Source: an uncultured Gammaproteobacteria bacterium (lineage in GTDB: Bacteria; Pseudomonadota; Gammaproteobacteria; UBA9214). From it: a stretch of 64,000 nucleotides of DNA. Under the pieces are notes generated by a model. The model did not search any database. It saw only the letters and a program-made list of their open reading frames with translations, and was not told where the DNA came from. Shown piece after piece: positions 26,848-42,754 of this stretch; the stretch's first letter is position 1, and every line of letters starts with the position of its first letter. Where the stretch lies: positions 32,001 through 96,000 of the forward strand of contig CAVVHS010000009.1 in assembly GCA_963748215.1 (NCBI GenBank), given 5' to 3'. Both the position numbers and the translations under genes were made by a program.

Positions 26848-27053
26848 GGTGCGTGGAACGCACCCTACAGTTTGCCACGGTGTGTCTGGCTGCGTAGGGT
26901 GCACTCCGTGCACCATGATCGTTACCCCAGCCGGTGCGTGAAACGCACCCTACGGATTATTGCGATGCCGCCTGATTGGGTAGGGGCACTCCGTGCACCA
27001 TGAATCCCCGCTCCTTGGCCGTTACGGCTGTTGGTGCGTAAAACGCACCCTAC
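26848..27053. repeat. GTAG REP cluster (5 units)
   Basis: Alternating GGTGCGTGGAACGCACCCTAC and GTAGGGTGCACTCCGTGCACC variants. Confidence 0.9.
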
Positions 27054-27094
27054 GAATGCTCAATAAAACAGTGCTGCGCGGTGCCTGGCCTACC

Positions 27095-27122
27095 CGTCAT
27101 TCCGGCGCAAGCCGGAATCCAG
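27095..27122 (+). repeat. single CGTC-type palindrome
   Basis: CGTCATTCCGGCGCAAGCCGGAATCCAG. Confidence 0.7.
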
Positions 27123-27124
27123 AC

Positions 27125-27832
27125 TCAGAACTTGCGTCGGCGTGCCACGCCAATCAAACCCAGCAGGCCGGAACCGAACAGCCAAACGGCGGCAGGGACG
27201 GGTACCGTTGTAATACTCAGCGTTGGCGCGTAATCGCCCGGATTACCTATTTGGGGATTACCAGACGATTCCTTGCTGCTGAATGCGTGGTTACTCGTTG
27301 AGACATTTGCTTGTGTGAGAATGAAGGTGATCAACCCATCGGTATCGTTGTTAATGAAGTCAACAAAAGTGCTGTTACTAAAACTAATGACATTATTACC
27401 TGTATAGCTGATCAAATCCGAGAATAACAGAGTCGTTGATGCGAGATCGATCGAATTTGTCAGTTTTCCTGGTGCGTTACTCCAGTCGATTGTGTCTTCT
27501 GACCAATTGGGTGAGACTGAATCATTCAGCCCATAGATATCTAACCCCAACGAACTAGTTGAGTTATAGCCAAAGAGCTCCAATGAAACCGCGGAAGCGG
27601 GATCTCCGATTGACTGAAAGGCCGTGATATCAAATCCAATGTATGAGTAGATGCTGTAATTGCCACTTGTGAAGGGTGCAAGTTGTGTAATTGCCCCTCC
27701 GAGCGGATCGGTAATGTTGTTGTGAATATTGGCATCATTATTCGTCTGGAAATCGATGGTGACGGCATTAGCGTCAAGTACATACGTGGCAAGACAAGCC
27801 AGCACAACGCCAGCAAGGCGTGATAGCATCAT
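27125..27832 (-). CDS. VPLPA-CTERM (PEP-CTERM-like) sorted surface protein with DNRLRE/CBM96-like domain; low GC
   Basis: Signal peptide; YIGFDI, WSEDTIDWSNAP, FSSKE...PTLSI; C-terminal VPVPAAVWLFGSGLLGLIGVARRRK. Confidence 0.85.
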   Translation of the reverse strand: MMLSRLAGVVLACLATYVLDANAVTIDFQTNNDANIHNNITDPLGGAITQLAPFTSGNYSIYSYIGFDITAFQSIGDPASAVSLELFGYNSTSSLGLDIYGLNDSVSPNWSEDTIDWSNAPGKLTNSIDLASTTLLFSDLISYTGNNVISFSNSTFVDFINNDTDGLITFILTQANVSTSNHAFSSKESSGNPQIGNPGDYAPTLSITTVPVPAAVWLFGSGLLGLIGVARRRKF

Positions 27833-27933
27833 GATGAATCCTCCGTAATCTTGTTTTTTATTGCCGGCCGTTATTTTTTGTAACCGGTTGCGCGCAGGGT
27901 ACACCCATCGACAGGGACCATCAAGCCTGTCCC

Positions 27934-28086
27934 GGTGCGTGGAACGCACCCTACGACACCCCGCGCTGTGTCTGACCGAGTAGGGTGCACTTTGTGCACC
28001 GTCATCGGTGCCCCTGTCGGTGCGTAGAACGCACCCTACGGATTATTGCAGCGCTGTCTGATTGGGTAGGGTGCATTCCATGCACC
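27934..28086. repeat. GTAG REP cluster (4 units) upstream of the RAYT
   Basis: Units at 27934, 27980, 28019 and 28066. Confidence 0.9.
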
Positions 28087-28131
28087 ATGATTGCTGCTCA
28101 CTAACACGAGGACTCATGGCAGGGCGCAATC

Positions 28132-28683
28132 ATGCCGAATTACCGGCGTACCATTGCTCCGGGCGGCACCTTCTTCTTCACGGTTGTCTCCTGGCGGCGC
28201 CGGCCCGTCCTGTGCAATTCTGACATTCGCGCCTCCCTGCGCGCAGCGCTCACGAGCGTCAGGTCAATACACCCTGTCACGGTCGAGGCCATGGTGCTGC
28301 TGCCGGACCATTTGCATTGTATCTGGACATTGCCTGAAGGGGACGCCGATTTCGCCGTGCGTTGGGCAATGATCAAGCGATTGGTAACGCATGATTGCGG
28401 CAGGCGTTACCCTGCATTCGCGAATATTTCCGCGTCCCGCAAGGCGCGGAAAGAGGGCGTTATCTGGCAGCGACGCTACTGGGAGCACCAGGTGCGTGAC
28501 CGGCTGGATCTGATCCGCTGCCTTGATTATCTGCACTGGAATCCGGTCAGGCACGGCTATGTCGGGGCTGTGATCGACTGGCCGTGGTCCAGTTTTCACC
28601 GCTACATGAGGCAGGGACATTACCCGGTGGATTGGGGCGGGCCAGGTGCGATTACCAGAGGAACGGAAGACTTCGGTGAATAG
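28132..28683 (+). CDS. rayT: REP-associated tyrosine transposase (RAYT, Y1 HUH)
   Basis: MPNYRR..PGGTFFFTV, PDHLHCIW (HUH), WQRRYWEH and YLHWNPV; flanked by REPs. Confidence 0.93.
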   Translation: MPNYRRTIAPGGTFFFTVVSWRRRPVLCNSDIRASLRAALTSVRSIHPVTVEAMVLLPDHLHCIWTLPEGDADFAVRWAMIKRLVTHDCGRRYPAFANISASRKARKEGVIWQRRYWEHQVRDRLDLIRCLDYLHWNPVRHGYVGAVIDWPWSSFHRYMRQGHYPVDWGGPGAITRGTEDFGE

Positions 28684-28693
28684 ACCGTGTCAT

Positions 28694-29152
28694 GGTGCGT
28701 AAAACGCACCCTACGGTGTCGCGGTGTATCTAACCGGGTAGGGTGCACTTCGTGCACCGTGATCGGTGCCCCTGTCGGTGCGTAAAACGCACCCTACGCC
28801 CATGGATCATCCCCGCTGCGTAGAACGCACCCTGCGGATTCTCGCATATTGGGTAGGGTGCACTCCGTGCACCGTGATCGGTGCCCCTGTCGGTGCGTAA
28901 AACGCACCCTACGCCCATGGATCATCCCCGCTGCGTTGAACATGCCCTGCGGATTCTGCTATTGGGTAGGGTGCACTCCGTGCACCGTGATCGGTGCCCC
29001 TGTCGGTGCGTGGAACGCACCCTACGCCCATGGATCATTCCCGCTGCGTGGAACGCTCCCTGCGGATTCTGCTATTGGGTAGGGTGCACTCCGTGCACCG
29101 TGAATCCCGCGCCATGCCCGGAGCCTGGATCGCTGCGTGGAGCGCGCCCTGC
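28694..29152. repeat. tandem REP (BIME-like) array with 113-115-bp period
   Basis: GTAG heads at 28738, 28853, 28966 and 29079. Confidence 0.9.
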
Positions 29153-29258
29153 ATCTAACCCACTAATATAAAAGTATTAATTCCGCCTGCCCGGGGCGCC
29201 GGGTAGCGCTGCAGCACCAGCCGGGAAAACACCCAACCCTGTTGATTCCCTCAAAAAG

Positions 29259-29285
29259 TAAAGCCCCCGTAAAAAAAGCCGATAA
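29259..29285 (+). promoter_or_regulatory. consensus sigma-28 promoter of the major pilin gene
   Basis: Exact TAAA-N15-GCCGATAA. Confidence 0.8.
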
Positions 29286-29328
29286 CCCGTTCGCAGTCTG
29301 AACAAATACCGGTTCTCAGGAGACAACC

Positions 29329-29913
29329 ATGACACGAATCAAACATCCAGCCGGCAAGGAAGCCGGTTTTACGCTGGTCGAACTGCTGATCGTCGCCATC
29401 ATCCTGGCCATCCTGGCCGCGATTGTGGTGCCGCAGTTCGCCTCTTCCACGGACGATGCCGAGGCCTCGGCCTTGCGCTCAAACCTGGCCGGTATCCGCA
29501 GCGCGATCGATCTGTATTACCAGCAGCATGGCAGCACCTTTCCGGGTGCGGTGGCCGCAACCGGCGGTACCTGTACCGGTGGTACGGCGGGCGCCGGCCT
29601 GATTGATACCGGGACTGCATTTGAAGAGCAGCTGAAATACTATTCCAACGCCGCGGGCCAGACCTGCAGTATCAGGGACGTACCGGCCGGCGGTGTCGTG
29701 GAATTCCCGTTCGGTCCGTACATCAAGGGTGATGTGCCGGCCAACCCGGTGACCGGTATCGCTACCATCGCCATCGAAACCACCGGCAACCTGGCCATGA
29801 CTGCCCCGGCCGCTACCTCGCAGGGCTGGCGCTACGACACTACCTCCGGCAAGTTCATCGCGGACGATTCGGTGGGTGTCGACTCGAACGGTACGGTCTT
29901 CGATACCTACTGA
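29329..29913 (+). CDS. probable major pilin/pseudopilin (GspG-like)
   Basis: AGGAG RBS; AG|FTLVELLIV; PFGPYI..PANP. Confidence 0.88.
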   Translation: MTRIKHPAGKEAGFTLVELLIVAIILAILAAIVVPQFASSTDDAEASALRSNLAGIRSAIDLYYQQHGSTFPGAVAATGGTCTGGTAGAGLIDTGTAFEEQLKYYSNAAGQTCSIRDVPAGGVVEFPFGPYIKGDVPANPVTGIATIAIETTGNLAMTAPAATSQGWRYDTTSGKFIADDSVGVDSNGTVFDTY

Positions 29914-29951
29914 TAACAAAACAGTGCTGACACCGGGACAGAGTCAGACTG

Positions 29952-30506
29952 ATGCGGGCGTTGCGTAGTCATGGCGTAACCCTTGTAGAACTCCTGGTGG
30001 TCGTCTCGATATTGGGGGTTGTCGCACTTGCGGCAATCCCCGATTTTCGTTCTGCAGACCCCCTGCGGCTGGACCTGGCGGCGCAGGAAATCGCGGAGGC
30101 GATTCGTTTTGCACGCAGCGAATCATTACGCACCGGCATGATCCACGGTGTCCAGATCAGCCAGGACACCCAGCGGGTGGTGGTCTACAGGGCGGACCTG
30201 ACGACGACACCGGTCGGCATGGTGTCCATCCTCTACCATCCGGTGGCGAAGCAGCCGTTCGACTTCGACGTGGCTGCGCGTCCGACCACCGCCGGTGTCA
30301 GCATCACCAATGCGCAGGATCCCTTTCTCTACGCAGCGGGACGGCGCAAGAACCTGCTGTTCGATGCGGCAGGCGTGCCGATCTGGATCGTTAATGCCAC
30401 AGCCACGACCTACGTATTGCAGGACGGGCTGGTTGAACTGGCTTACGGCAGTGGCAAGCGGGTTGTCCAGATTGCGCCGATTACCGGCCGGGTGACGGTG
30501 CAATGA
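29952..30506 (+). CDS. GspH/FimT-like minor pilin
   Basis: HG|VTLVELLVV; IRFARSES; ITGRV C-terminus. Confidence 0.85.
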   Translation: MRALRSHGVTLVELLVVVSILGVVALAAIPDFRSADPLRLDLAAQEIAEAIRFARSESLRTGMIHGVQISQDTQRVVVYRADLTTTPVGMVSILYHPVAKQPFDFDVAARPTTAGVSITNAQDPFLYAAGRRKNLLFDAAGVPIWIVNATATTYVLQDGLVELAYGSGKRVVQIAPITGRVTVQ

Positions 30507-30576
30507 CCGCGTCAATGCGCCTATCACTGTCAGCATGTTCCAAATGATTATTTGCCGAGTTTGCAAGGAGACCGCT

Positions 30577-30876
30577 ATGCACATACCTACAGTCCTGATG
30601 TGGAGTATCACCCTCTTGACCGCCGTGGTCGGCATGGTCTTTCTGTTCTTTCCGGACCGGATCGCGCGACTGGAGGCGTGGCTGAATGCGCCCTGGGGTA
30701 ACCGTGAAGTGGCCTCGCTGCGTTTCGGGCTGCCTGCAGAACAGACCATTGAACAGGTCCTGAACCGCAATATCCTGGCGACACCGCTGGTCTGGGACGG
30801 CTGGCTGCGGCGGCACCCGCGGCCGGTCGGAGCCGTGCTGTGCCTGGTGGCCGCATTGCTCTGGTGGCAGATGTAG
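30577..30876 (+). CDS. two-TM hypothetical membrane protein
   Basis: AAGGAG RBS; hydrophobic N- and C-terminal segments. Confidence 0.7.
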   Translation: MHIPTVLMWSITLLTAVVGMVFLFFPDRIARLEAWLNAPWGNREVASLRFGLPAEQTIEQVLNRNILATPLVWDGWLRRHPRPVGAVLCLVAALLWWQM

Positions 30877-30886
30877 TGCAACCGGT

Positions 30887-31711
30887 ATGCTGCGCGGGGT
30901 AACAGACAGGGTGCATGGAATACACCCTGCCCGGCGTACGGGTAGGGTGCACTTCGTGCACCATGACACGGTGCGTGAAACGTACCCTATGGATTCCACC
31001 TCTGCGGTGGGATCGTCGAGTAGGGTGCACTCCGTGCACCGTTGTATGGTGCGTGAAACGCACCCTATGGATTCCACCTCTGCGGTGGGATCGTCGGGTA
31101 GGGTGCACTCCGTGCCCCATTGCACGGTGCGTGAAACGCACCCTACACAATCTGCCACTGCGGTGGAATCTTCGGGTAGGGTGCACTCCGTGCACCGTTG
31201 TATGGTGCGTGAAACGCACCCTGCGGATTCTGCCTCTGCGGTGGGATCGTCGAGTAGGGTGCACTCCGTGCACCGTTGCGCACCGTGGATCAGGCGCATG
31301 GCCGGTCTGAGCTACATCGAGGTCCTGATCGCCACGGCCCTGATCGCCATCACCCTGGTACCGGCCATCGAGGCCCTGACGCCCGCCCTGCAGGGTGCGG
31401 CCATCCATGAATCAAGCACTGTCCAGCAGTTCCACCTGGCCGCCCGGCTGGAAGCGCTGCTGGCCGAACCGTTCGCGGCACTGGACGCGGAGGCCGTGGC
31501 CATCAACAACCCGAACGTGGCCAGCACCGTCTATTCGGATACGGTCGGCGCAACCAATCGCCGCCTGGTCTACCTGTCACGCTACGACGCCGACAATGCC
31601 GATGGCGACAATGACTTTTTCACCGGCACGGACGCGGGCCTGATCTGGATAAGGGTCGAACTCACAGGGACGGCGCGGGCCATCGAAGGCCTGACCAGTG
31701 CCTATGAATAG
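30887..31711 (+). CDS. GspI/PilV-like minor pilin with in-frame REP array in the leader (alternative start 31298)
   Basis: AG|LSYIEVLIA at 31307; frame open from ATG 30887 through the REPs. Confidence 0.75.
   Translation: MLRGVTDRVHGIHPARRTGRVHFVHHDTVRETYPMDSTSAVGSSSRVHSVHRCMVRETHPMDSTSAVGSSGRVHSVPHCTVRETHPTQSATAVESSGRVHSVHRCMVRETHPADSASAVGSSSRVHSVHRCAPWIRRMAGLSYIEVLIATALIAITLVPAIEALTPALQGAAIHESSTVQQFHLAARLEALLAEPFAALDAEAVAINNPNVASTVYSDTVGATNRRLVYLSRYDADNADGDNDFFTGTDAGLIWIRVELTGTARAIEGLTSAYE
30910..31274. repeat. REP array with 78-bp period
   Basis: GTAG heads at 30942, 31020, 31098, 31176 and 31254. Confidence 0.95.
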
Positions 31712-31722
31712 GACGGATCATC

Positions 31723-33336
31723 ATGCGGTGCGTGAAACGCACCCTACGGATTCGGGGCGCGGTGGGGAAACGTCGCGTAACACGGTGCGTGAACGCACCT
31801 ACCCATTCTGCATCCGCACTGGAATCGTTGGGCAGGGTGCACTCCGTGCACCATTGCGCGGTGCGTAAAACGCACCCTGCGGAATCTGCCGCCGCGCTGG
31901 AATCATCGGGTAGGGTGCACTCCGTGCACCATGGCGCGGTGCGTAAAACGCACCCTACGGATTCTGCCTCCGCGGTGGAATCATCAGGTAGGGTGCACTC
32001 CGTGCACCATGACGCGGTGCGTGAAACGCACCCTGCGGAGTCTGCCTCCGCGGTGGAATCATCGGGTAGGGTGCACTCCGTGCACCATGGCGCGGTGCGT
32101 AACACGCACCCTGCGGATTCTGCCTCCGCACCGGGATCGTCGGGTAGGGTGCACTCCGTGCACCATTGCACGGTGCGTGAAACGCACCCTACGGATTCTG
32201 CCTCTGCGCTGGAACCATCGGGTAGGGTGCACTCCGTGCCCCGTGACATGGTGCGTGAAACGCACCCTACGGATTCTGCCTCCGCGGTGGGATCGTCGCG
32301 TAGGGTGCACTCCGTGCACCATTTCCGGTGCGTAAAACGCACCCTACGACCCATGCACCACCGCGATCGTCAATCCGGCTTCACCCTGCTCGAGCTGCTG
32401 ATCGCCCTGGCGCTCAGCGCCATCCTGTTTGCCGGGCTCGGCGGCATCGTCGGCCAGGCCATGGATACGCAGGACGCCGTTGAGACCGGCAACGACCTCA
32501 CCCAACAGGCACGCTTCGCCATGGAGCAGATGGTGCGGATGGTCGGGCACACGCGCCTGCTGCTGCTGCCGATGGCGGACAAAACAGTCACCACATTCGT
32601 CGAGAACATCCGCGAGCAGACCATCCCGGCGTCAACGCCACCCACCGGCAGCATCTACGCCACCGCCGTGCTGGCGGTGACCCTGCCGGCCACTTCTGAT
32701 CTGGACGGCAACGGCATCCCCGATGCCGACAACGACGGCGACGGCCGGATCGACGAGGACCTGCCGGCCGATGTCGATAATGACGGCAAGCCCGGCATCC
32801 GCGGTATCGATGATGACGGCAACGGCGTCACCGATTATTTTCTTTCACCAGCAGCCGACGATGATGAAAGCGGAGATTTGGCCCAGAACGAGGATCGTAT
32901 CAACGGGCTGGATGACGACGGCGACGGCATCGTCGACGAAGACCCCGGGGCGGACAACAACGGCGATGGCTGTCCGGGGACCTGCGCGGTGGACGACGAC
33001 GCGGACGGCGCCCTGGACGAGGGGGCCGCGGCAGACGACGACGAGGACGGCGTCAGCGACGAGGACTGGTACGACCCGGTGGTGTTCTACCTGTCCGGTG
33101 GCAACCTGATGCAGCGCACGCCGGTGCCGTGGGATGAAAATGCCAGCGGGACAGTCACCGGACAGGATTACGTTGAACAGGTCATTGCCGAGCACGTCAC
33201 GCGCTTGCGGGTGGAACGCATTCCGCAGGGAGCCGGTCGCGCCCAGCTCGTCGATCTGACGCTGGTGCTGACAGATCCGCAGACGGGCGAGACGGTGAGT
33301 CTGAACACCCGTGTACGGGTCGGGGGTGCGTTGTGA
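31723..33336 (+). CDS. GspJ/PilW-like minor pilin with Asp-rich DxDxDG repeats and in-frame REP leader (alternative starts 31704 or 32353)
   Basis: SG|FTLLELLIA at 32380; DNDGDGRIDED-type repeats. Confidence 0.8.
   Translation: MRCVKRTLRIRGAVGKRRVTRCVNAPTHSASALESLGRVHSVHHCAVRKTHPAESAAALESSGRVHSVHHGAVRKTHPTDSASAVESSGRVHSVHHDAVRETHPAESASAVESSGRVHSVHHGAVRNTHPADSASAPGSSGRVHSVHHCTVRETHPTDSASALEPSGRVHSVPRDMVRETHPTDSASAVGSSRRVHSVHHFRCVKRTLRPMHHRDRQSGFTLLELLIALALSAILFAGLGGIVGQAMDTQDAVETGNDLTQQARFAMEQMVRMVGHTRLLLLPMADKTVTTFVENIREQTIPASTPPTGSIYATAVLAVTLPATSDLDGNGIPDADNDGDGRIDEDLPADVDNDGKPGIRGIDDDGNGVTDYFLSPAADDDESGDLAQNEDRINGLDDDGDGIVDEDPGADNNGDGCPGTCAVDDDADGALDEGAAADDDEDGVSDEDWYDPVVFYLSGGNLMQRTPVPWDENASGTVTGQDYVEQVIAEHVTRLRVERIPQGAGRAQLVDLTLVLTDPQTGETVSLNTRVRVGGAL
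31727..32347. repeat. REP array with 78-bp period
   Basis: Heads at 31832, 31910, 31988, 32066, 32144, 32222 and 32300. Confidence 0.95.
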
Positions 33337-36300
33337 GCCGTACGACGCCCATACATCGCACGGTGCGTGAAACGCACCCTACGCATTCTGCCGCTGCGGT
33401 GGAATCATCGGGTAGGGTGCACTCCGTGCACCATGGCCCGGTGCGTGAAACGCACCCTACGCATTCTGCCGCTGCGGTGGAATCATCGGGTAGGGTGCAC
33501 TCCGTGCACCATGACGCGGTGCGTAAAACGCACCCTACGGATCCTGCCGCTGCGGTGGAATCATCGGGTAGGGTGCACTCCGTGCACCATGACACGGTGC
33601 GTGAAACGCACCCTACGCATTCTGTCACTGCGGTGGAATCATCGGGTAGGGTGCACGCCGTGCACCGTTCCCGGTGCGTAAAACGCACCCTACGAACCCA
33701 GCGCGGCTTCATCCTGCTGCCGGTGGTGCTGGCCATCGTGCTCATCGCCACCATCGCCTTCCTGCTCAACAACCAGAGCGCCATCAATGTCGACAGCGCG
33801 GCGGGCGAGGCGCAGGCCCGGCAGGCGGACGCGATCGCCGCGGCCGGCCTGGCGCATGCCACCTGGGGTGCGCAGCACAGCGGCTGTGCCGGCGACATGG
33901 CCATGACGACAGTGCCGTTCGGCCAGGGCAGCTACGCCGCCACGGTGGATGCCGGTGGTGTGACAGCCACGCAGTACACCTTCACCCCGGACCGTGATGG
34001 CATCATCGAAGAGGGACACACCGATCACAACCATTCCGGCGACGACCTGATCAAGGTCAAGAATAAGCCGGGCGACACCATGCATGCGCTGTATCACTAT
34101 GACCTGTCGTCCATCCCGACCGACCGGAAGGTGGTGACGGCCACGGCCTGGTTTTACGTGGACACCGTGGATGACAAGGGCGCGGTGACAGTGCATCGGG
34201 TGACCGCCGACTGGACGGAGGCCGCTCTTACCTGGGACGCCGTCGGCGGTAAATTCGAGAGCCGGGTATACGGCAGCTTTCCGCCGCAGCCAGCAAAGGA
34301 CGTATGGGTGTCGGTCAACGTCACCGCGCTTGCCCAGAACTGGGTCAGTAACCCGGGCAGCAACTACGGCTTCCTGCTGAACGCGAGCTCCGACAATTTG
34401 GAGTCGAAATACACCAGCCGCGAGTACGGCACCGCCAGCCTGCGGCCCTACTTGGAGGTCACCACGGCCGACGCCGCGGTCTCGCCGGTAAATATCAGCG
34501 CTACCGGCACGCTCACCGGCAATCCCAGCCCGGCCAACGACATCTCACGTACCCTGACCCGAACAGCGGTACCGGCCTACCAGTCAGCTTCAAATCTTGT
34601 CCTGCAGCCCGACGCCGCAGCGGGCGAGGACGCGTATATCTGGCAGTGGGCAAAGAACAGCAACTACGGCACTGCCGATGAAACCTGGGTCGCTTCGACC
34701 CCGCCGGCAAACAACACGGCACTTGCCCTTTTCAGGTTTGATATGGCTGCGCTTCCGCCGGGCGCGAAGATCCTGGACGCCAGCCTGTCGTTGCATCACA
34801 GGGATGGCAACGACCCGGATGTGCCGGTGACGGCACACCGGATTACACGAGGCTGGGAAGAGGATTCTGTTACCTGGAACAACTACAAGACCGGTAACCC
34901 CTGGAGCACGGCCGGTGGCGATTTTGATGCGGCGGTAGTGGCGACCACGAACGTGGGTCCCGGCAATAATACCCGTTACGAGTGGGACATTACGAGCCTG
35001 GTGCAGGGCTGGATCAATGGCATTTATACGAATGAGGGTGTTGCGCTGCGTACAGTAGAACCGGGCATTTACGGCGAACGCTTTGATACCAGCGACCATG
35101 CCGACCCTGCCCGCCGCCCACGTCTGAGTATCACCTATGCCTGCGAATGCGGCAATCCCTGCCTGGCCCCGCAGGGCATGGGAACGGTGGCGATGGTGGT
35201 GATCAACCCGACGACGCTGGTCCCGGCGGATGCCTACAAGAAGGCACTGTTCGAATCCTGGGGCTACACGGTGAACGTCATCGGCGAGAATGCCAACGCG
35301 GCGGCCTACGATGACCGCTGCCGCCAGCAATGACGTCTTCTACATCTCGGAGACGGTCAATTCAAATCAGGTGGGCACCCGGATCAAGGACGTGCCCATC
35401 GGTGTGGTCAGCGAGGACGGGGATTACAACAGTCGGTCTCGGTCTTGCCACCGGCTCGGGGCACACCGCCGGGTCGGCGCTCAATGTCACCGACACCAGC
35501 CACTACATCACCGCCGTCTTCCCGGCCGGCCCGCTGGATATCTATTCGGCGGCCATGGAACAGCTCACGGTGTCGGGGACCGCGGCGCCGGGCCTGCAGA
35601 CACTGGCCGACACCGGCGGGGCCGGTTCGCTGGTGGTGCTGGCCAAGGGTGCAGGCATGGCCGGCGGCGGTACTGCCGCCGGCCGGCGCGTGATGCTGCC
35701 GCTGGGGCGCGTGGGCAAGTTCAACTGGGACTACCTCAACGGCAACGGCCGGCTGATCGTGCAGCGCGCGCTGCAGTGGGGCACGGGCAATACCGGTGCG
35801 CCACCGCAGAACCTGCTGCTGGTGGTCGTCAATCCGGGCAGTCTTACCGTGCAGGAAGCCGCCAAGAAAACATTGTTCGAATCCTGGGGTTATGCGGTCT
35901 CCCTGATCGACGAGGCCGACAGCCAGGCTGTGTTCGATACGGCGGTGGCCGCCAGTGACGTGGTGTATATCACCGAGGATGTCTCTTCGAGCACGGTTGG
36001 CACCAAGCTGGTCAGCGCACCGATCGGCGTGGTCACCGAGGAGGACAACCTGTCCGATGAATTCGGTCTCTCCGCCAGCATTGCCTGGGAGACTGGCACA
36101 CAGGTCGAGATTAACGACAACACGCACTACATCACCGCACCCTTCCCGACCGGCCTGCTGACTGTTATGACCAGTACCGAGTCACTGGCCTATGTAACCG
36201 GTGCCCTGTCACCCGATCTGGGAAAACTGGCGAGTTCCGCATCCGGGTTTGGGGTTGTGACACTCGAGGCCGGTGCCGCGACCTATACCGGCGGCAGCGC

Positions 36301-38233
36301 GGCCGGTCGACGCGTGCAACTGCCCTGGGGCGGTGACAATTTTAATCTCAGCCATCTCAATACCGACGGCAGGACCATTCTGCAGCGCGCCCTCGAGTGG
36401 GGTACCGGTGCCGGTGTTGCTGCCACGCAGACGATTCTGTTCGTGGTGCCGGATGCGACGGCACTCACAGCACAGGACGCAACGAAGAAGACGCTGATGG
36501 AATCCTGGGGATTCAGCGTGGCATTGATCACGGCTGCCGACACTCAGGCAAACTTCGATGCCGCCGTGGCCAGCGCGGATGTGGCCTATATCTCAGAAGA
36601 GGTCACTTCGAGTGTCGTTGGAACCAAGCTAAGGGATGCCACCATCGGCGTGGTGAGTGAGGAGACGGCCTTGACAGACGAGTTCGGGATAGCGGGTGTG
36701 CGGACCGGCTATACCGGGACTGACATCGAGGTCGTCAACACCACGCATTACATTACCTCGGTATTTGCCAGTGGGCCGCGGACCATTGCATCGTCAGCCA
36801 CGTCACTCAACCGGCTGACGGGATCGCTCGCGCCTGGCCTGGACGCGCTTGCGGAAACCACTGGAGATCCGGAACTGGCCACCCTTGAAACAGGTGGCCT
36901 GCTGTATGACAGTGGCACGGCCGCCGGGCGCCGCGTGCAGCTACCGTGGGGGGGTGACGCCTTCGACATCAACCTGTTGACTGCCGATGGCCAGACCCTG
37001 ATGCGGCGCGCCATCCAGTGGGGTGCGGGCGCGGGCGGCGTTGCCACCATGCCGATCGCGCACTGGAAATTCGACGAAGGCACCGGCCCGACCGCCTTTG
37101 ACTCCGTGGGCGGCAACGATGCCACCCTGAATGGCAACCCAGCCTGGACGACGGGCACGTTCGGTGACGCCCTCGACTTCGATGGGAGTGGCGACTACGT
37201 CACGACGGATAATAATTTCACCCCGCCACCAATTGGTACCGTCACGTTCTGGATGCAGGTGTCCGGCTCACCCGCCTCGCTCGGGCGCATTCTTGGTCTC
37301 CACGATACCTGGGAAATACGACACGTTACGACCGGCACGGCCGACGGTATACCCTATGGTCTGGTCTTCGACCTGGGCCTCAGTGGCGTCAACACTGAAT
37401 TCGTCACGACCACGACCATCGACACGCCCGGGCAGTGGTATCACATCGCCGCGTCGTACGACACGACCAACGATGCCTATGCCGTCTATATTGACGGTGT
37501 GCCGCACAAGAGCGGGACCTATCCGTCCACCTTGTCGGTACCGGCCGCTAATCCATTGTCACTTGGCACCCGCACCGGTTCGAGCAACTACTTCGATGGA
37601 ATACTGGATGACGTGCGCATCTACGACAAGTTCCTGTCTGCTGCAGAAATCGCTGACCTGGCAGCCGGCGGTGGTGGTGGCGGTGGTGGCGGTGGCAGTC
37701 CGACCATCGTCGAGGTGCGGGTCGCCACCGGTAATGACGATGCCGAGGAACGGGTCAGCAATGGTAATGTCAATCTCACCAGTTCCGACCTCGAACTCAT
37801 CGCGGATGGCGCCAATGCCCAGCTTGTTGGGATGCGCTTTACCGGTGTCGCCGTACCCAATGGTGCAACCATCACCAATGCCTGGATTCAGTTCCAGGTC
37901 GACGAGACCAACACGGGTGCGACGAACGTCAATATTCAGGGTGAAACGAGCGACAGTGCGCTGCAGTTTACAACGGTTAATTCCAACATTTCCTCACGCG
38001 GCAGGACCACGGCCTCGATCCCTTGGGCGCCAGTTTCCTGGACGACCGTGGGTGAGGCGGGCCCCGACCAGCAGACGCCGGATATCAGTGCGGCGATTCA
38101 GGAAATCGTCAGCCGTCCAGGCTGGGCCAGCGGCAATGACATGGTGATAATCCTCACCGGTAGCGGGGAACGCACGGCGGAGGCCTACAATGGCGACGCC
38201 GCGGGCGCACCGCTGCTGCACATCGAGTATTAG
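33333..38233 (+). CDS. giant GspK/PilX-like modular pilin/adhesin (about 1630 aa), interrupted by two +1 frameshifts near 35313 and 35432
   Basis: RG|FILLPVVL at 33708; two DNRLRE/CBM96-like domains; three ~200-aa repeats; LamG-like domain (AHWKFDE, WYHIAASYD, FDGILDDVRIY); repeat homology continues across ORFs 33333, 35290 and 35330. Confidence 0.75.
33362..33693. repeat. REP array with 78-bp period
   Basis: Heads at 33412, 33490, 33568 and 33646. Confidence 0.95.
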
Positions 38234-38247
38234 GGCAACGGGATTAA

Positions 38248-38447
38248 CGGGGTTGACCTCCTCAACATCCTGATACGGCAGCATTACGCGGACGGCAGCA
38301 TTACGGGGTCGGACCTTCCCAATATCCTGACGCAGCATTACGGGGTCGGACCTTCCCAATATCCTGATAAGTAATCACTTAACGCGATGGAACGCCTGAT
38401 TTCTCAGCTTAGAGCGTACTTTTCGGGTAGCTTTTAGGGCGAATAAG
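38248..38447. repeat. tandem GGGGTCGGACC-type element ends plus ~105-bp direct repeat of 39254-39358
   Basis: CGGGGTCGGACCTTCCCAATATCCTGA at 38304 and 38341, degenerate copy at 38248. Confidence 0.8.
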
Positions 38448-38473
38448 AATTCGGTGCGTCTGGTGCGTCTATC

Positions 38474-38538
38474 GGTGCGTAGAACGCACCCTACGGTGGT
38501 GCGGTGTATCGGGTTGGGTAGGGTGCACTTTGTGCACC
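38474..38538. repeat. GTAG REP pair
   Basis: GGTGCGTAGAACGCACCCTAC ... GTAGGGTGCACTTTGTGCACC. Confidence 0.88.
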
Positions 38539-38649
38539 GTGAGACCTGTTCAGGTAGCAACGTGTTCTGGCTGTTTGTCGTCTTGCAGGATTCCCGAATT
38601 CAGCCTGGTTTTTCTGCGTACGGGAACGGCGACTCTCAGCCGGGGATGA

Positions 38650-38916
38650 TCACTGGTTATGTAACTTTTCCTGCAGCCACACCTTGATCAGTGATTGATA
38701 GGGCACGTCGCGTGCATTTGCCGCGGCCTTGATCGAGTCCAGCAGATGCTGGGGGAGACGAAGGGAAATTGTTTTGGTCGTCGGCTTCAGATTGGGCATG
38801 ACAACCGATTGCGCCTTATCCCAGTCGAGATACTCAGAGGAATCGTGCTGTTCCCAGAATTTCCGTTCTTCGTCTTCGCTGGCGAATTTCGGTACGGATT
38901 TAAGTCGCTTTTTCAT
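38650..38916 (-). CDS. BrnA/CopG-like antitoxin
   Basis: PKFASEDEERKFWEQHDS and TISLRLP...PYQSLIK (ribbon-helix-helix). Confidence 0.88.
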   Translation of the reverse strand: MKKRLKSVPKFASEDEERKFWEQHDSSEYLDWDKAQSVVMPNLKPTTKTISLRLPQHLLDSIKAAANARDVPYQSLIKVWLQEKLHNQ

Positions 38917-39199
38917 AAATGTCACGCTCCTTTCGATGCATAGCCCTGGCCGAGATTACCCGGATCTTTTCCCCTTCATGGCGCACAGTGAACGTTATAT
39001 GCAGCAGCCGGGAGTCATCGGTTTTACCCAGAGCGTGGAAGCGCGGCTCCTGGTTGCTGTGTCCGGCATCGTCAAGCACCAGTAACGGGGCATTGAAGAA
39101 AACCTGTTCCGCTTCCGCCATGCAAACGCCGTGCTTCTCGTTTTTTCGGGTGTTTCCCTCGTCCCAGTCAAAGCCCGTGATCTTCGTCCAATCGATCAT
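38900..39199 (-). CDS. BrnT-family toxin
   Basis: FDWDEGN..KNEKHGV, EPRF and IRVISAR motifs. Confidence 0.92.
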   Translation of the reverse strand: MIDWTKITGFDWDEGNTRKNEKHGVCMAEAEQVFFNAPLLVLDDAGHSNQEPRFHALGKTDDSRLLHITFTVRHEGEKIRVISARAMHRKERDIYEKAT

Positions 39200-39253
39200 C
39201 GACGTATATTATCAACATATACATATTGGGGCAAGCCGCCAATGCGGCGGGGT

Positions 39254-40185
39254 GGGGTCGGACCTTTCTAATATACTGATAAGTAAACGGATAAGGCGAA
39301 AGATCGCCACTTTTCTCGGCTTAGAGCGTACTTTTCAGGCACTTTTAGGGCGAATAAGTGCTCGGTTCCTCCCGCAAGAATAATAAATCTGTTTCTCCCT
39401 CAATCCTCCGCCCCGGATGACAGCGCTTCAGTTCGCGCCCAATCGCATCCAGGTAGTCGCGCTGTCCCACGGCGATACTCATGGTCCACGCCGGGTCGCG
39501 CTCCAGATTGCCCTTCGCAAGCGCCAGTTCCACCCACGTGCGCAGTCCGTCGCGCAAACTGTCCGCATCGACAAAACCCAGTAATGCGGAAAGTGCTGCC
39601 ACATCGATGCAGCGATAGCGTTTCGGCAACGACTGAATTTCGTTGTATCCCGCATGCGCCCAGTCCGCAGGATGTTCGACTGCGCGCGCCCGGACCATGT
39701 TCAGGTCGATGTAGACCATACACCGCGCCAGATGCCCATCCGATTGCACGGCGGTTGCATGGTAGCGATCTTCCCAGTAGGCGCCTTTGCGGGACTTCCG
39801 GCGATTGAACTGTTGTGCCACCCGTCCGGCAATCAACTGCATGCTGCGCGCGATCTCTCCGTGCCCCCTGTCCTTGACCAGCAAATGGACATGGTTCGAC
39901 GTCACGACATAATTCAGCACGCACAGGTCAAAGCGCCTGCGTGCCTGATACAGCCAGTACACCCAGGCACGACGATCCTTCGCAAACTTGAGCAGGAACT
40001 GTTGTTTGTGACAGCGATGCGTGATGTGCCAGACATGACCTGGCAGAAAATACCGATGTGCACGGGGCATCGACTTCCTCCTTGAAGCTACGTTTTCGAG
40101 CCTGAAAACGACGTTTAAGGCCCATACCATAGCCAAATATGAACACTTATTGCTTGAGGATCAGTCTGATAAAGAGGTCCGACCC
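39254..40185 (-). mobile_element. Y1 HUH transposase element bounded by imperfect inverted ends
   Basis: GGGTCGGACCT at 39255 and its reverse complement at 40175-40185; second motif pair at 39320-39340 and 40100-40119. Confidence 0.65.
39345..40070 (-). CDS. Y1 (IS200/RAYT-superfamily) HUH transposase
   Basis: MPRAHR..PG..WHITHRC, SNHVHLLV, WEDRY and YIDLNMVRA motifs. Confidence 0.9.
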   Translation of the reverse strand: MPRAHRYFLPGHVWHITHRCHKQQFLLKFAKDRRAWVYWLYQARRRFDLCVLNYVVTSNHVHLLVKDRGHGEIARSMQLIAGRVAQQFNRRKSRKGAYWEDRYHATAVQSDGHLARCMVYIDLNMVRARAVEHPADWAHAGYNEIQSLPKRYRCIDVAALSALLGFVDADSLRDGLRTWVELALAKGNLERDPAWTMSIAVGQRDYLDAIGRELKRCHPGRRIEGETDLLFLREEPSTYSP

Positions 40186-40228
40186 TGTCCCGACTGTCCC
40201 ACGATGCCGGGAATCCTGTGGACGACAG

Positions 40229-40255
40229 TCAAGGGCTTGCCCGCACGGCCGAAAA
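40229..40255 (+). promoter_or_regulatory. candidate sigma-28 promoter of the HDOD gene
   Basis: TCAAG-N14-GCCGAAAA. Confidence 0.6.
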
Positions 40256-40276
40256 AGAGGAAAGGGAGATTGTCTG

Positions 40277-41173
40277 ATGGACCAGCCGACCAATTGCCTC
40301 TGGGAACGAGTCATCGCGGACGCGCAGCTGCTGACGCTGCCGGCCGTCTATCTGCGCCTGAAGGAGGTGCTGGACGATCCCGATTATGCCGTCTCCGATG
40401 TCGAGGGTGCCATCAGCTCGGACCCTGCCATCGCCACGCGCCTGCTGCGCCAGGCCAACAGCCCCTATTTTGGTTTTGCCTCGAAGATCGAAACCATCTC
40501 GCGCGCCGTCGGTTTGCTCGGTTCACAGCAGGTTCACGACCTGGTCCTGGCTACCTCGGTGGCGCAGACCTTTTCCGGTATTTCCATCGAGGTGATGGAC
40601 ATGCACGCCTTCTGGACACGCAGCGTCTACTGCGCGGCGGCCGCGCGCCTTTTGGCGGTGAACTGCAACATACTCGATAGCGAGCGGTTGTTCGTCGCCG
40701 GCCTGCTGCGGGATATCGGGCACCTGGTCATGTACCAGTCGATTCCGGACGAAGCAAAGGCGGCCTTGCTGCGTGCCCGGGAGGATGGCCGCTCATTGTA
40801 CGAGGTGGAGCGCGAGGTGGTCGGCTTCGATTATGCGCAACTGGGCGGAGCGTTGTTGCAACAGTGGGGACTACCCAAGGGCCTGTGGGAGCCGGTGCAG
40901 GTGCAAGTTACGCCCGAGCAGGCAACCGAATATTCACTGGAGGCCTCGATTGTGCATCTCGCCGGGGTGCTCAGCGATGTGGGTCAGACCGAGGATGACG
41001 AGCGCGACGCCTTCGTGCAGCTGGTGCATCCGTCCGTCTGGGAGTCCACCGGCCTGACGCGCGAGCAGTGCGCGGCGATCCAGGACGAGGTCGAAAGCCA
41101 GCTCGATGGTGTGATGTACCTGATCTTTCCCGGCTCCAAGACCGTGCATGCCGGTTCGCGGCTCGCGATGTAA
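40277..41173 (+). CDS. HDOD-domain protein
   Basis: LLTLP, DPAIATRLLRQANS, AGLLRDIG and WGLP motifs. Confidence 0.9.
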   Translation: MDQPTNCLWERVIADAQLLTLPAVYLRLKEVLDDPDYAVSDVEGAISSDPAIATRLLRQANSPYFGFASKIETISRAVGLLGSQQVHDLVLATSVAQTFSGISIEVMDMHAFWTRSVYCAAAARLLAVNCNILDSERLFVAGLLRDIGHLVMYQSIPDEAKAALLRAREDGRSLYEVEREVVGFDYAQLGGALLQQWGLPKGLWEPVQVQVTPEQATEYSLEASIVHLAGVLSDVGQTEDDERDAFVQLVHPSVWESTGLTREQCAAIQDEVESQLDGVMYLIFPGSKTVHAGSRLAM

Positions 41174-41182
41174 CAGCCTGTC

Positions 41183-41459
41183 GGTGCGTGGAACGCACCC
41201 TACGTTACTGTCAGCCTGGGTAGGGTGCGCTCGGTGCACCGTGAATCCTGCGACATGCCCGAGGTATATCGGTGCGTAAAACGCACCCTACGGTGACGGG
41301 GGTATTTCCAGTGCGTAAAACGCACCCTACGGTGCCGGGCATTGTCTGCCTGGGTAGGGTGTACTTGGTGCACCGTGATTCCTGTGCCATGCCCGGTTTA
41401 TATCGGTGCGTAAAACGCACCCTACGTTCCGGGAATTTCTCTGCGTAAACCCACCCTGC
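41183..41459. repeat. GTAG REP cluster
   Basis: About seven units with irregular spacing. Confidence 0.9.
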
Positions 41460-41490
41460 GATCGATGAAATGGGTCGACCCTGTCACATA

Positions 41491-41517
41491 TCAAGAATAC
41501 CGCTATAGGGCCGCTAA
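41491..41517 (+). promoter_or_regulatory. candidate sigma-28 promoter of the diguanylate cyclase gene
   Basis: TCAAG-N14-GCCGCTAA. Confidence 0.6.
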
Positions 41518-41577
41518 CAGGCTGAGGACAGGCGTATCAATCACCGCACCCGGTGCGTAACAAGACGAAAAACTAGC

Positions 41578-42747
41578 ATGATCAATGAATTACGGGATGC
41601 ATGGCGGGCCTCCGGCTTCAGTTCCGGGGAGGTGGCGCTGTTTGCGCGCAGTGCGATGCTGGAAGAGACCCGGCGCGGCCTGGTGCTGATGGGTATCGTG
41701 TTGCTGTGTATCTTCAGCGCCAGTGCGCTGCTGTTTTACCAATTCGGATTCGCGCACTCCACCGTCTATACCACTGGCCTGCTGGCCTTGCTGTCCGCCC
41801 ACATCATGGTATCGGCACGCGCCGCGCGCGATGCCAGCGCACTGTATATGCTTGGCACCACCCTGTTGATGATCAGCGGCACGGCGTTCGTGTTGCTGGC
41901 GCACAAGACCGGTGATTTCAACCAGGTGCTGTTTGCCAGTGTAGCGCTGCTGTTCATGGTGGCACCGCTGGTGCCGTGGGGCCTGCGCGAGGCCTTGCTG
42001 GTCACCGTGCTGATTTATCTTACCTTTACCGTTTCCACACTGACGTCCTACGAACGCTTTGACAGTAAATCGCTGTGGTCGCTGCAGTTCATCATGCTAA
42101 GCGCCGGCCTGATCAGTTTATTGCTGGTGATGCGCAACACGACCATTCGCAAGGCCGACCTGCAGACGCGTTTCGACCTGGAGCAGACCAACCGCAAAAT
42201 ACTGCACCTGTCCAACAAGGACCCGCTGACCGGTGCATGGAACCGGCGATTCCTGAAGAACGTGTTCGAGGCGAAGACGCAGGCATGGCATGCCGATGGC
42301 AAGGATTTTCATTTCGCCTATCTCGACCTGGACAATTTCAAGCCTATCAATGATAACTGCGGGCATGATTTTGGTGACGAGGTGCTGCGTTGCGTCAGCC
42401 AACACTTCACCGCGGCCCTGGGTGATGATGGTTACCTGGTGCGCATGGGTGGCGATGAGTTTGCCCTGTTGTACACCAGCGATGACCCCGAGCAGCAGAT
42501 TACCAACTGCCTGCAAAAAATCCGGGCGGCTATCCGCTCGCCGGGCCAGTGCAAGTCGATGGCCATCGGTATGAGCGTCGGGCTGGCCAGCGTGCCGGTG
42601 GGGGTCGAGCTCTCGCAGGAGGCCATCTACCGGGAGGCCGATGAGGCTCTGTACAGCGCCAAGGCGCGCAAGGGGCAGTACCGGGACACGGCAAATGTTG
42701 TCAGCCGTGTGCTGGATGGGTCTGAACGGTCACAAACCGTCGCCTGA
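41578..42747 (+). CDS. membrane diguanylate cyclase
   Basis: Multiple TM segments; DPLTG, DLDNFK, RMGGDEF and ADEALY motifs. Confidence 0.92.
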   Translation: MINELRDAWRASGFSSGEVALFARSAMLEETRRGLVLMGIVLLCIFSASALLFYQFGFAHSTVYTTGLLALLSAHIMVSARAARDASALYMLGTTLLMISGTAFVLLAHKTGDFNQVLFASVALLFMVAPLVPWGLREALLVTVLIYLTFTVSTLTSYERFDSKSLWSLQFIMLSAGLISLLLVMRNTTIRKADLQTRFDLEQTNRKILHLSNKDPLTGAWNRRFLKNVFEAKTQAWHADGKDFHFAYLDLDNFKPINDNCGHDFGDEVLRCVSQHFTAALGDDGYLVRMGGDEFALLYTSDDPEQQITNCLQKIRAAIRSPGQCKSMAIGMSVGLASVPVGVELSQEAIYREADEALYSAKARKGQYRDTANVVSRVLDGSERSQTVA

Positions 42748-42754
42748 GTCCTGT

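Follow-up and report, generated by a model that had tools for sequence, protein, structure and literature searches.

Analysis of a 64,000-nucleotide stretch of DNA from an uncultured Gammaproteobacteria bacterium (the window) identified three tandem REP arrays within three consecutive minor prepilin genes, each array lying between a start codon beside the preceding stop codon and the G-1 cleavage site. The best reading of the locus, held here with moderate confidence, is that the arrays are translated, giving predicted leaders of up to 140, 219 and 125 aa for genes 1, 2 and 3, respectively. The array of gene 3, where the reading is strongest, is likely to be translated, and that of gene 1 is probably translated, with somewhat less assurance; for gene 2, where the reading is weakest, the two possibilities are evenly balanced. 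This reading is drawn from the openness of the gene frame, the stop-to-cleavage phase kept together with an overlapping start, and the rule that closed junctions carry an ATG of their own.

Anatomy of the Arrays

The TRF analysis of the window showed three tandem arrays of a REP doublet with a period of 78 bp and without indels, all on the + strand: array 1 at 30942-31279 (78 bp × 4.3, 86% matches), array 2 at 31783-32348 (78 bp × 7.3, 87% matches) and array 3 at 33359-33694 (78 bp × 4.3, 93% matches). The first REP-B of array 2 was already present at 31727, 5' of the TRF span. Within the 78-bp unit, REP-A (a GTAG head and hairpin) is followed at 28 nt by REP-B, an inverted A-like copy, and the next REP-A stands 50 nt further on. 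The GTAG head of REP-A precedes a 7-bp stem with a 3-nt loop, the 5' GTAG and short imperfect palindrome of a GTAG-REP. The RNA fold of the arrays was very strong (-215 kcal/mol, z -5.9), with REP-A paired to REP-B.

The consensus unit translated as GRVHSVHHGTVRETHPTDSASAVESS. Across arrays 1-3, a total of 15 REP-A heads were identified, and all of them shared one codon phase. The gene frame was free of stop codons throughout arrays 1-3, which were spanned by ORFs at 30887-31711, 31723-33336 and 33333-35333, and a REP search of the locus returned no matches in the mature parts of genes 1-3. The TRF, ORF and REP search results confirmed the arrangement described in an earlier note on this DNA, namely three in-frame arrays, each reaching from a start beside the previous stop up to the G-1 site. 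The openness inside the arrays is partly a property of the unit and not independent evidence, because two of the three forward frames of the consensus unit lack stops and repetition every 78 bp preserves any frame. The informative features are the divisibility of the period by 3, the way the arrays are phased with the gene, and flanks that are also open.

The substitutions among units were distributed 36/18/21 over the three codon positions, with no third-position excess, and the leader peptide sequence is therefore not under visible selection. A sequence-specific functional leader peptide was dropped as a candidate on this distribution, which likewise gave no support to the earlier suggestion that His/Ser/Arg-rich peptides are released. 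Stop-creating substitutions made up about 5-6 of the 234 possible; none was seen among 75 substitutions in 12 whole units in either open frame (F1, F2), a test without power. The similarity between units was slightly higher within arrays (0.894) than between them (0.862), values that would fit a shared origin and local growth and that carry no date. The earlier suggestion of a RAYT-tunable device was also left without support. The whole-unit copy differences between species fit slippage or unequal crossing-over as well as any action of the RAYT.

The Pilin Operon

The genes of the locus all lie on the + strand. A major pilin or pseudopilin-like gene (29329..29913) was matched by Pfam N_methyl and has a 13-aa leader, MTRIKHPAGKEAG, followed by FTLVELL. 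Next is gH (29952..30506), assigned by family match to a GspH/FimT-like minor pilin, which has a separate start and a leader of 8 aa, and then g0 (30535..30876), which encodes a small hydrophobic protein of 113 aa with no family match that is not a pilin. The candidate leader of gene 1, defined by motif and ORF, is 140 aa from ATG 30887 to G-1 (30887..31306), with the mature part from 31307 (LSYIEVLIATALIA); the rival start at ATG 31298 (31298..31711) would give the 3-aa leader MAG. The candidate leader of gene 2, defined by the ORF, is 219 aa from ATG 31723 (31723..32379), with AGGAcGGA 5' of the ATG, and the rival start at ATG 32353 (32353..33336) would give the 9-aa leader MHHRDRQSG before a mature part from 32380 (FTLLELL). 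In gene 3, a candidate leader of 125 aa begins at GTG 33333 (33333..33707), which overlaps the g2 stop as GTGA and has GGGGGT on its 5' side, and the mature part (33708..35333), beginning FILLPVVLAIV, contains CBM96/DNRLRE domains. Overlapping the g3 stop is the gene of a LamG-domain protein of 967 aa (35330..38233), identified by ORF and domain match.

Among genes 1-3, Pfam N_methyl was matched by gene 2 only (8.8e-9), and gene 1 reached just E 0.66. The cleavage-site motifs are G/LSYIE in gene 1, G/FTLLE in gene 2 and QRG/FILLP in gene 3 (the slash marking the cleavage site), the last without Glu5. Genes 1 and 3 were called prepilins on motif, hydrophobic stretch and operon position. Coming after a GspH-like gene, genes 1-3 would, by order and motifs, resemble GspI/J/K; a missing Glu5 is a trait of GspK/PilX-type pilins. 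The genome contains a single prepilin peptidase match (PF01478, 97.6 bits, G000:C9:256595-256924). Of its 25 N_methyl matches, REPs were present in the upstream open frame only for gene 2 of the pilin operon; the other N_methyl proteins have short leaders with a start nearby. The long candidate leaders are basic (pI about 11) and rich in His/Ser/Val/Arg.

The REP Family and Its RAYT Gene

The REPs of the arrays belong to a genome-wide GTAG-REP family, with 436 matches at up to 3 mismatches in 434 distinct places, forming 137 clusters on all 9 contigs. The spacing of REP-A and REP-B is 27-28 nt genome-wide, and the inverted doublets are able to form a long hairpin. A RAYT (REP-associated tyrosine transposase) gene is located 2 kb upstream of the arrays (28132..28683, +; NCBIfam NF047646 at 174.6 bits, the cut-off being 80; weak Pfam Y1_Tnp match), and four further Y1_Tnp matches were identified in the genome. 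The RAYT gene is flanked on both sides by the same REPs as in the arrays: a cluster of the order B, A, B, A on its 5' side (27934..28086, +), found by REP search, and a cluster between the RAYT and major pilin genes (28694..29099, +) with a period of ~113 bp and stops in all six frames.

The chance openness of the arrays was checked against the 19 REP clusters of at least 300 bp in the genome. A stop-free frame was present only in the three arrays of the pilin genes; the other 16 clusters were open in 0/96 frames. As regards the extragenic location usual for REPs, the other long clusters have stops in all frames, and these three, with genes called at the locus, lie inside long ORFs and are probably coding on the comparative evidence.

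Junctions in Related Loci

The gene junctions were surveyed in 38 related loci, a long junction being one of at least 100 nt. The counts omit six loci that repeat stretches already included; they also lack seven junctions, of which six yielded no cleavage motif and one had a negative gap, and junctions were skipped where the tblastn match began past query residue 45. Most of the genomes compared are metagenome bins, in which repeats can be misassembled. Because the genomes all share ancestry, the p-values make the evidence look stronger than it is.

In minor-pilin junctions under 100 nt (n = 68), the cleavage site stood a median of 32 nt from the preceding stop, and the gene frame was open in 67/68. 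The stop of gH was ATGA or GTGA in 29/29, and that of g2 was ATGA, GTGA or TTGA in 29/34. Where relatives have no REPs, adjacent genes share ATGA or GTGA overlaps and intergenic space is absent; the leader-coding stretch is therefore the sole possible site for an insert.

The phase of the junctions was conserved across very different lengths. The gH-to-g1 distance was 2 mod 3 in 28/28 loci (16 distinct lengths, 14-170 nt) and the g2-to-g3 distance in 25/29 (18 distinct lengths, 11-371 nt, the window having 371), while the phases of the control junction, gMaj-to-gH, were split 8/8/9. When only gH-to-g1 and g2-to-g3 junctions of at least 60 nt were counted, 21/24 were in phase (binomial 6e-8, a p that the relatedness of the loci overstates). 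In junctions of at least 100 nt, the gene frame was stop-free in 25/32, compared with 6/64 for the other forward frames (Fisher 1.8e-11, among related genomes); for the REP-bearing junctions of this length, the values were 17/23 and 4/46. An own ATG with a short leader, bounded at 5-15 aa, was present in all seven closed junctions and in only 4/25 open ones (p about 1e-4).

The earlier note had named, among the findings that would count against it, stops or frameshifts in orthologous arrays while the pilus remains functional. Stops were present in six REP-bearing junctions of relatives, each of which uses its own downstream ATG, so that REPs are tolerated untranslated in pilin junctions too. 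Its broader proposal, in which the cleaved leader tolerates the arrival of REPs in an operon without spacers, gained comparative support from the survey.

The closest relative has the 78-bp unit in frame at all three junctions, in fewer copies, with predicted leaders that reach 65, 69 and about 70 aa, at a dS of 0.3-0.5 from this genome. Compared with this relative, the genome described here has indels of -1 and -11 nt where array 3 ends on its 3' side; the last REP-B is thereby read in another frame, but the gene frame is restored. The mature parts are under purifying selection, with dN/dS of 0.26 for gene 1 (against G049) and 0.11-0.17 for gene 2. Further, independent in-frame insertions were noted elsewhere. 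One relative has REPs with a period of 63 bp (21 aa) 5' of g3, and G018 has a non-REP 33-nt repeat 5' of g1. A metagenome g2 orthologue of 410 aa, the single match to residues 1-215 of the gene 2 leader among database proteins of 295-940 aa, has its own REP leader with a 26-aa period and a different spacer.

Start Codons and Alternative Explanations

An alternative explanation, unlikely but of appreciable probability, is that the arrays are untranslated intercistronic REP/BIME elements of the mRNA, acting in stability, attenuation or processing, and that translation begins at ATG 31298, ATG 32353 and GTG 33660 with leaders of 3, 9 and 16 aa. The open frames would then be a by-product of the stop-poor unit, which is open in two forward frames and whose length is divisible by 3 by chance, and the strong RNA structure, the six closed REP-bearing junctions with their own ATG and the REP-borne GTG found 9-14 codons 5' of G-1 in many lineages would all be in keeping with it. 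In the part of Di Nocera et al. 2013 (PMC3733652) drawn on here, REPs lying at ORF 5' ends were also, for the most part, judged to be probably non-coding.

The start codons bear on this explanation differently in each gene. It is best placed at gene 2, where ATG 32353 gives a canonical, basic leader of textbook length, although this ATG has no Shine-Dalgarno sequence and stands 5 nt after a hairpin. The upstream ATG 31723 has AGGAcGGA as a start signal but is itself array-derived, and the junction length of 668 is 2 mod 3, out of the usual phase when compared with the genus-typical 1. At gene 1, ATG 30887 has no clear Shine-Dalgarno sequence; an ATG ~10-11 nt past the g0 stop is nevertheless conserved in this genome, G049 and G018, and in frame in the closest relative. 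The 3-aa, uncharged MAG from ATG 31298 also contrasts with the 9-35 aa leaders of REP-free orthologues. At gene 3, no ATG was found in the leader stretch examined and no start codon was present 3' of the last REP-A, the start closest to G-1 being GTG 33660 in the stem of that REP-A; the upstream GTG 33333 has GGGGGT as a start signal. The absence of translation would, moreover, leave unexplained the conserved phase, the excess of open gene frames in long junctions, the open 5' flanks and the own ATG in every closed junction. On this evidence, together with the compensating indels, the earlier claim of in-frame translation of the arrays within the precursor was strengthened for genes 1 and 3, and stands more weakly for gene 2 with its own ATG 32353.

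A second, very unlikely alternative keeps the coupled starts and lets ribosomes read through the arrays, melting the hairpins and avoiding polarity, with the long-leader products inefficient and the working pilins made mainly from internal in-frame starts in or after the last REP. In-frame GTG and ATG codons are numerous inside the arrays and could yield shorter leaders, and AGGG sits 8 nt 5' of the second GTG of REP-A. This second GTG has become ATG in some relatives (RVHSMHH), and ATG 32353 aligns by eye, in the leader translations, with a GTG in the 3' arm of the closest relative's REP-A. Such internal starts are inseparable from full-length leaders by sequence alone; coupling by itself, however, needs no shared frame between the upstream ORF and the pilin.

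Decay of the operon in this lineage, with REP invasion reflecting relaxed selection and the open frames transient, is extremely improbable: the closest relative has what looks like a mid-gene frameshift in g2 (perhaps an assembly error) and a broken g3 alignment, but all three mature parts are full length and without stops in this genome, a pseudogene reading was rejected on the dN/dS of 0.11-0.26 for g1 and g2 against the closest relative, and in both species the arrays have kept their frame at all three junctions at the dS given above.

Proposed Course of Events

Under translation of the arrays, the reading preferred here, REP doublets of the GTAG type, from the REP/RAYT family native to this genome, would have entered the leader-coding stretch of three minor prepilin genes, and the arrays would then have grown in place by whole 78-bp units. 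Each minor pilin gene starts overlapping or abutting the preceding stop, with no untranslated spacer, and an insert would survive only if it kept the frame or if the gene had or gained its own downstream start; in this genome the frame is kept. Translation from GTG 33333 and ATG 30887, and probably also from ATG 31723, would carry ribosomes across the arrays and yield precursors whose basic cytoplasmic leaders reach at most 125, 140 and 219 aa, respectively. The single prepilin peptidase is predicted to remove these long leaders at the conserved G-1. The starts used, the cleavage and a working pilus are all inferred. It is also conceivable, if quite unlikely, that a class III leader nearly unconstrained in length and sequence serves, in tightly coupled pilin operons, as a landing and growth zone for REPINs, and has reached 125-219 aa in this lineage. 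The array copy number, changing by whole in-frame units, would then govern both the speed and the amount in which each tip minor pilin is made and processed, as a quickly mutable, heritable dial on pilus initiation.

If the arrays are translated, the prepilin peptidase and the membrane-insertion route would accept leaders 5-8 times as long as any given in the portion of Berry & Pelicic 2015 used here, which would alter the search for and annotation of pilin genes. REPs, which are by definition extragenic, would then be able to last as coding sequence across a dS of 0.3-0.5, held only to a simple rule of frame, and mobile repeats in operons without spacers would have an evolutionary refuge in a signal segment that is cleaved off. 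If they are not translated, the locus represents a REP/BIME invasion of an operon that is ordinary in kind, though of unusual density. The two-regime rule, by which a junction is either in frame or has its own ATG, offers a practical test for similar cases.

Comparison with Known Systems

Literature searches returned, among the matches listed, no report of prepilin leaders longer than 30 aa and nothing relevant on REPINs as in-frame tandem repeats in signal peptides; the search for REPs linked with prepilins returned nothing relevant, only one unrelated review.

GTAG-type REPs and REPINs reportedly occur with RAYT transposases. The elements described here share with them the GTAG head, the short imperfect palindrome, hundreds of copies, the inverted doublets and a REP-flanked RAYT gene.

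The locus shares with class III signal peptides a Gly at -1, a hydrophobic stretch, Glu5 (in g1 and g2), a basic, hydrophilic, cytoplasmic leader and one prepilin peptidase. It differs in leader length. The leaders of type IV pilins are 6-26 aa, and those of type IVb about 15-30 aa, in the text of Berry & Pelicic 2015 available for comparison, whereas use of the upstream starts would give 125-219 aa here and 50-70 aa in related species.

REPs inside ORFs were described, within the sections of PMC3733652 considered, as mostly dimers encoding 20-30 aa, with clusters of 43-82 aa, many of them N-terminal. Compared with that part of the record, the arrays here have 4-7 tandem doublets encoding roughly 110-190 aa, occur in three consecutive genes and are confined to the cleaved segment. 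The N-terminal REPs covered there were mostly judged probably non-coding, whereas the conserved frame and phase of the present arrays argue for coding.

Rickettsia palindromic elements (RPE), as presented in the source material available in part, are palindromes lying in frame in functional ORFs, including N-terminal decorations expressed in vivo. The likeness, palindromic repeats inside ORFs and in frame, is an analogy only. RPEs are an unrelated repeat family of single insertions that stay in the mature protein, and not tandem arrays in a removable signal segment.

As with REP2, a repeat is joined in frame to the beginning of a gene, and several of the lineages compared here have, as the start codon closest to G-1 on its 5' side, a GTG or ATG that belongs to a REP. 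REP2 is, however, a longer and different element that bears a promoter and has no link to a RAYT, and the phase at these junctions points to an older overlapping start and not to one that the repeat brought in. The BIMEs of E. coli and of Stenotrophomonas (SMAG) resemble the arrays in their regular spacing, alternating orientation, position within operons and strong RNA hairpins. Classic BIMEs are untranslated, in keeping with the 16 other long clusters of this genome, which are stopped in all frames, whereas the three arrays in the prepilin genes are open.

Gene order and repeat arrays

The type IV filament locus spans 18.8 to 45 kb of the window, and its early genes encode a sensor kinase, a GGDEF-EAL protein, an MshEN/T2SSE ATPase and a T2SSF platform protein. 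The pilin operon includes a major pilin-like gene (29329-29913, +), a GspH-like gene (gH; 29952-30506, +), a gene for a small membrane protein (g0; 30535-30876, +), which lies between gH and g1, and then the minor prepilin genes g1, g2 and g3 and the gene for a LamG protein, with HDOD, GGDEF and PilM genes farther on. The assembly ATPase bears STAS and MshEN domains (among 23524-25569 and 21228-23435), with the GGDEF-EAL protein upstream and the HDOD and GGDEF genes later; this gene company suggests c-di-GMP control of the pilus. A CBM96-domain ORF (27125-27949, −), flanked by two REP clusters, lies just 5' of the gene for a REP-associated tyrosine transposase (RAYT), and CBM96 is also present in g3 (33333-35333, +). 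The mature part of g2 is Asp-rich at 32700-33070, with repeated DxDxDG-like motifs (TRF rows at 32985-33064) that presumably resemble calcium-binding repeats. No family match was found for this Asp-rich stretch.

TRF analysis identified a REP array with a period of 78 bp and no indels ahead of g1 (30942-31279), g2 (31783-32348) and g3 (33359-33694). The unit is a REP doublet comprised of REP-A, with a GTAG head and a 7-bp stem, and an inverted, A-like REP-B 28 nt on; the next REP-A follows REP-B after 50 nt. An ORF on the + strand runs through each array to the cleavage site: 30887-31711 reaches G↓LSYIE with a longest leader (the segment ahead of G-1) of 140 aa, 31723-33336 reaches G↓FTLLE with 219 aa, and 33333-35333 reaches QRG↓FILLP with 125 aa. 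Translated in the gene frame, the unit reads GRVHSVHHGTVRETHPTDSASAVESS in all three arrays alike. No REPs were identified in the mature parts of g1, g2 or g3. The description of the arrays in the earlier note was correct in all particulars checked. The predicted RNA fold of array 3 (−215 kcal/mol, z −5.9) pairs A with B.

The REP family in the genome

REPs occupy 434 distinct places in the genome; these form 137 clusters and are spread over all nine contigs. The array periods are many, from 68 to about 250 bp, and within this genome the 78-bp unit is confined to the pilin operon. The RAYT gene (28132-28683, +; NF047646, 174.6 bits) has REP clusters of the same family on both flanks. A second, weaker Y1_Tnp ORF (39345-40136, −; 68 bits vs the RAYT model cut-off of 80) follows the pilin genes closely, near REP clusters at 38474-38538 and 41183-41425. 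Apart from a clear extragenic location, the pilin-operon repeats show every defining feature of GTAG REPs/REPINs.

Between the RAYT and major pilin genes, in the expected place of the operon promoter, lies a further REP array (28736-29103; period about 113 bp, 3.2 copies) with stops in all six frames. The 64 REP matches listed for the 16 kb at 26848-43012, a stretch that takes in the RAYT gene, the pilin operon and the genes beyond it, are uniform in orientation (A+ or B+), the sole exception being 28066, which also scores as B−.

Open frame within the arrays

Of the genome's 19 REP clusters of at least 300 bp, the three pilin arrays are the only ones with a stop-free frame (0/96 frames open in the other 16); in clusters of 150-300 bp, 21/204 frames are open. 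Because two forward frames of the consensus 78-mer are free of stops and its period preserves any frame, the informative features are the period, the phasing of array and gene, and the flanks. The stop-avoidance test was powerless inside the arrays, and the substitutions among array units showed no third-position excess (36/18/21 by codon position). The arrays by themselves do not decide whether the open frame exceeds chance.

Minor pilin junctions across relatives

We compared 38 operon loci: the window, 10 stretches of the same genus and 27 non-duplicate loci from other uncultured Gammaproteobacteria. For each minor-pilin junction, we measured how far the cleavage site lies from the end of the upstream stop and counted stops in the three forward frames. 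Six duplicate loci and seven junctions (no motif, or a negative gap) were left out, and 100 junctions were kept.

The 68 junctions shorter than 100 nt have a median distance of 32 nt, and 67 of them are open. ATGA or GTGA forms the gH stop in 29/29 loci, and ATGA, GTGA or TTGA the g2 stop in 29/34, so that each start overlaps the preceding stop and the few intervening codons form the leader. REP-free relatives are without a spacer between minor pilin genes. All 28 gH-to-g1 distances are 2 mod 3 (16 distinct lengths, 14 to 170 nt), as are 25 of the 29 g2-to-g3 distances (18 distinct lengths, 11 to 371 nt, the latter being the window's). As a control, the major pilin-to-gH junction, a true intergenic spacer, showed phases of 8/8/9 and an open gene frame in 11/25 loci. 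Taking the gH-to-g1 and g2-to-g3 junctions of at least 60 nt together, 21/24 are in phase (p = 6 × 10−8, which overstates the case because the loci are related).

At junctions of at least 100 nt, 25/32 gene frames are stop-free vs 6/64 other forward frames (p = 1.8 × 10−11, overstated because the genomes are related); for the 23 of these that bear REP heads, the values are 17/23 vs 4/46. A start of their own, an ATG whose leader falls within the bound of 5-15 aa, was present in 7/7 closed (stop-containing) junctions vs 4/25 open ones (p about 10−4, again overstated by the relatedness of the genomes), which indicates two ways to bear an insert: to stay in frame, or to have an own start below it.

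Between relatives, the inserts vary in sequence and orientation as well as in number and period. A REP period of 63 bp precedes g3 in one relative, and a metagenome orthologue has a 26-aa REP period whose spacer differs. In relative G018 (locus L025), the g1 leader contains a non-REP, 33-nt tandem repeat, in frame and in three copies (11 aa, APECPRDGIGL), downstream of the ATG that follows g0 and ahead of the cleavage site. Two g1 junctions are open and without REP heads (143 nt in G002, locus L026; 170 nt in locus L057). The possible leaders are at least 31 aa and up to about 58 aa, respectively; if they are that long, long leaders in this family would be independent of REPs. In G015, the operon is present twice (L023, L024): one copy has a g0-like gene between g2 and g3, and the other has a 282-nt g2-to-g3 spacer with REP heads and stops, and a g3 with its own ATG.

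The closest relative (G049, locus L019) shares 84-90% identity with the window in g1 and g2. All three of its junctions contain the same 78-bp unit, again in frame but in fewer copies, with leaders of up to 65, 69 and about 70 aa. The dN/dS values between the two genomes (g1, 0.26; g2, 0.11-0.17) and a dS of 0.3-0.5 indicate that the genes are under purifying selection and that the arrays are old. At the 3' end of array 3, the window differs from this relative by −1 and −11 nt indels, whereby its last REP-B reads RCVKRTLR, not AVRETHPT, and the frame is restored before QRG↓F. In this relative, g2 seems to be frameshifted by +1 midway, where a T/C-rich run lies, and the g3 alignment is broken, which may reflect an assembly error or real decay.

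Candidate starts and proposed translation of the arrays

The main rival explanation is that the arrays are untranslated and downstream starts are used. The case for translation through an array is strongest at g3, given its ancestral GTGA start, ancestral phase, open frame, lack of an ATG and compensated indel pair. GTG 33333 overlaps the g2 stop and is preceded by GGGGGT; no ATG was found in the g3 leader stretch examined, and GTG 33660 lies within the 3' arm of a REP-A stem.

For g1, the upstream neighbour is g0 and not gH, so the 28/28 phase rule is not directly applicable. The g0-to-g1 junctions are open in 5/5 cases (143-430 nt) and the ATG after g0 is conserved: an ATG stands about 10-11 nt past the g0 stop in the window and in its closest relative, with GVT(D/N)R encoded next, and in G018 this position likewise holds an ATG. 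ATG 30887 is without a clear Shine-Dalgarno sequence, and ATG 31298 would yield a 3-residue leader (MAG), where REP-free g1 orthologues have leaders of 9-35 aa.

For g2, the evidence for a translated array is mixed. Its frame stays open through 224 codons; against this, the junction is out of the genus-typical phase, there is an in-frame stop five codons above ATG 31723, which itself belongs to a partial repeat unit, and a canonical ATG with a 9-aa leader lies directly below the array. ATG 31723 is preceded by AGGAcGGA; ATG 32353 is without a Shine-Dalgarno sequence, 5 nt past a hairpin. A mixed arrangement, in which read-through serves coupling and the working protein comes from internal starts, is not separable by sequence.

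We infer that the arrays are translated, that the leaders are cleaved and that the pilus works. From coupled starts, the arrays would be translated as long basic leaders (pI about 11), which would remain cytoplasmic, with the hydrophobic helix inserted in the usual prepilin manner, the topology outlined in a review (Berry & Pelicic 2015). The sole prepilin peptidase of the genome would then cleave at G-1. We found no support for three further ideas: copy-number setting by the RAYT, regulation through leader length, and a use for the released leader peptide.

Comparison with known systems

Our searches found no literature linking REPs with prepilin leaders. Class III leaders are given as 6-26 aa in the same review (Berry & Pelicic 2015). 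Intragenic GTAG REPs, often N-terminal and encoding up to 43-82 aa, are catalogued in Di Nocera et al. 2013 (PMC3733652), where most N-terminal ones are deemed probably non-coding, and the Rickettsia RPEs are the classic in-frame palindromes. Intragenic GTAG REPs and in-frame palindromes are therefore already known as a kind; the novelty here lies in where the repeats sit, a class III leader that is cleaved off; in their scale, with tandem arrays in three genes in a row; and in comparative evidence for a kept frame.
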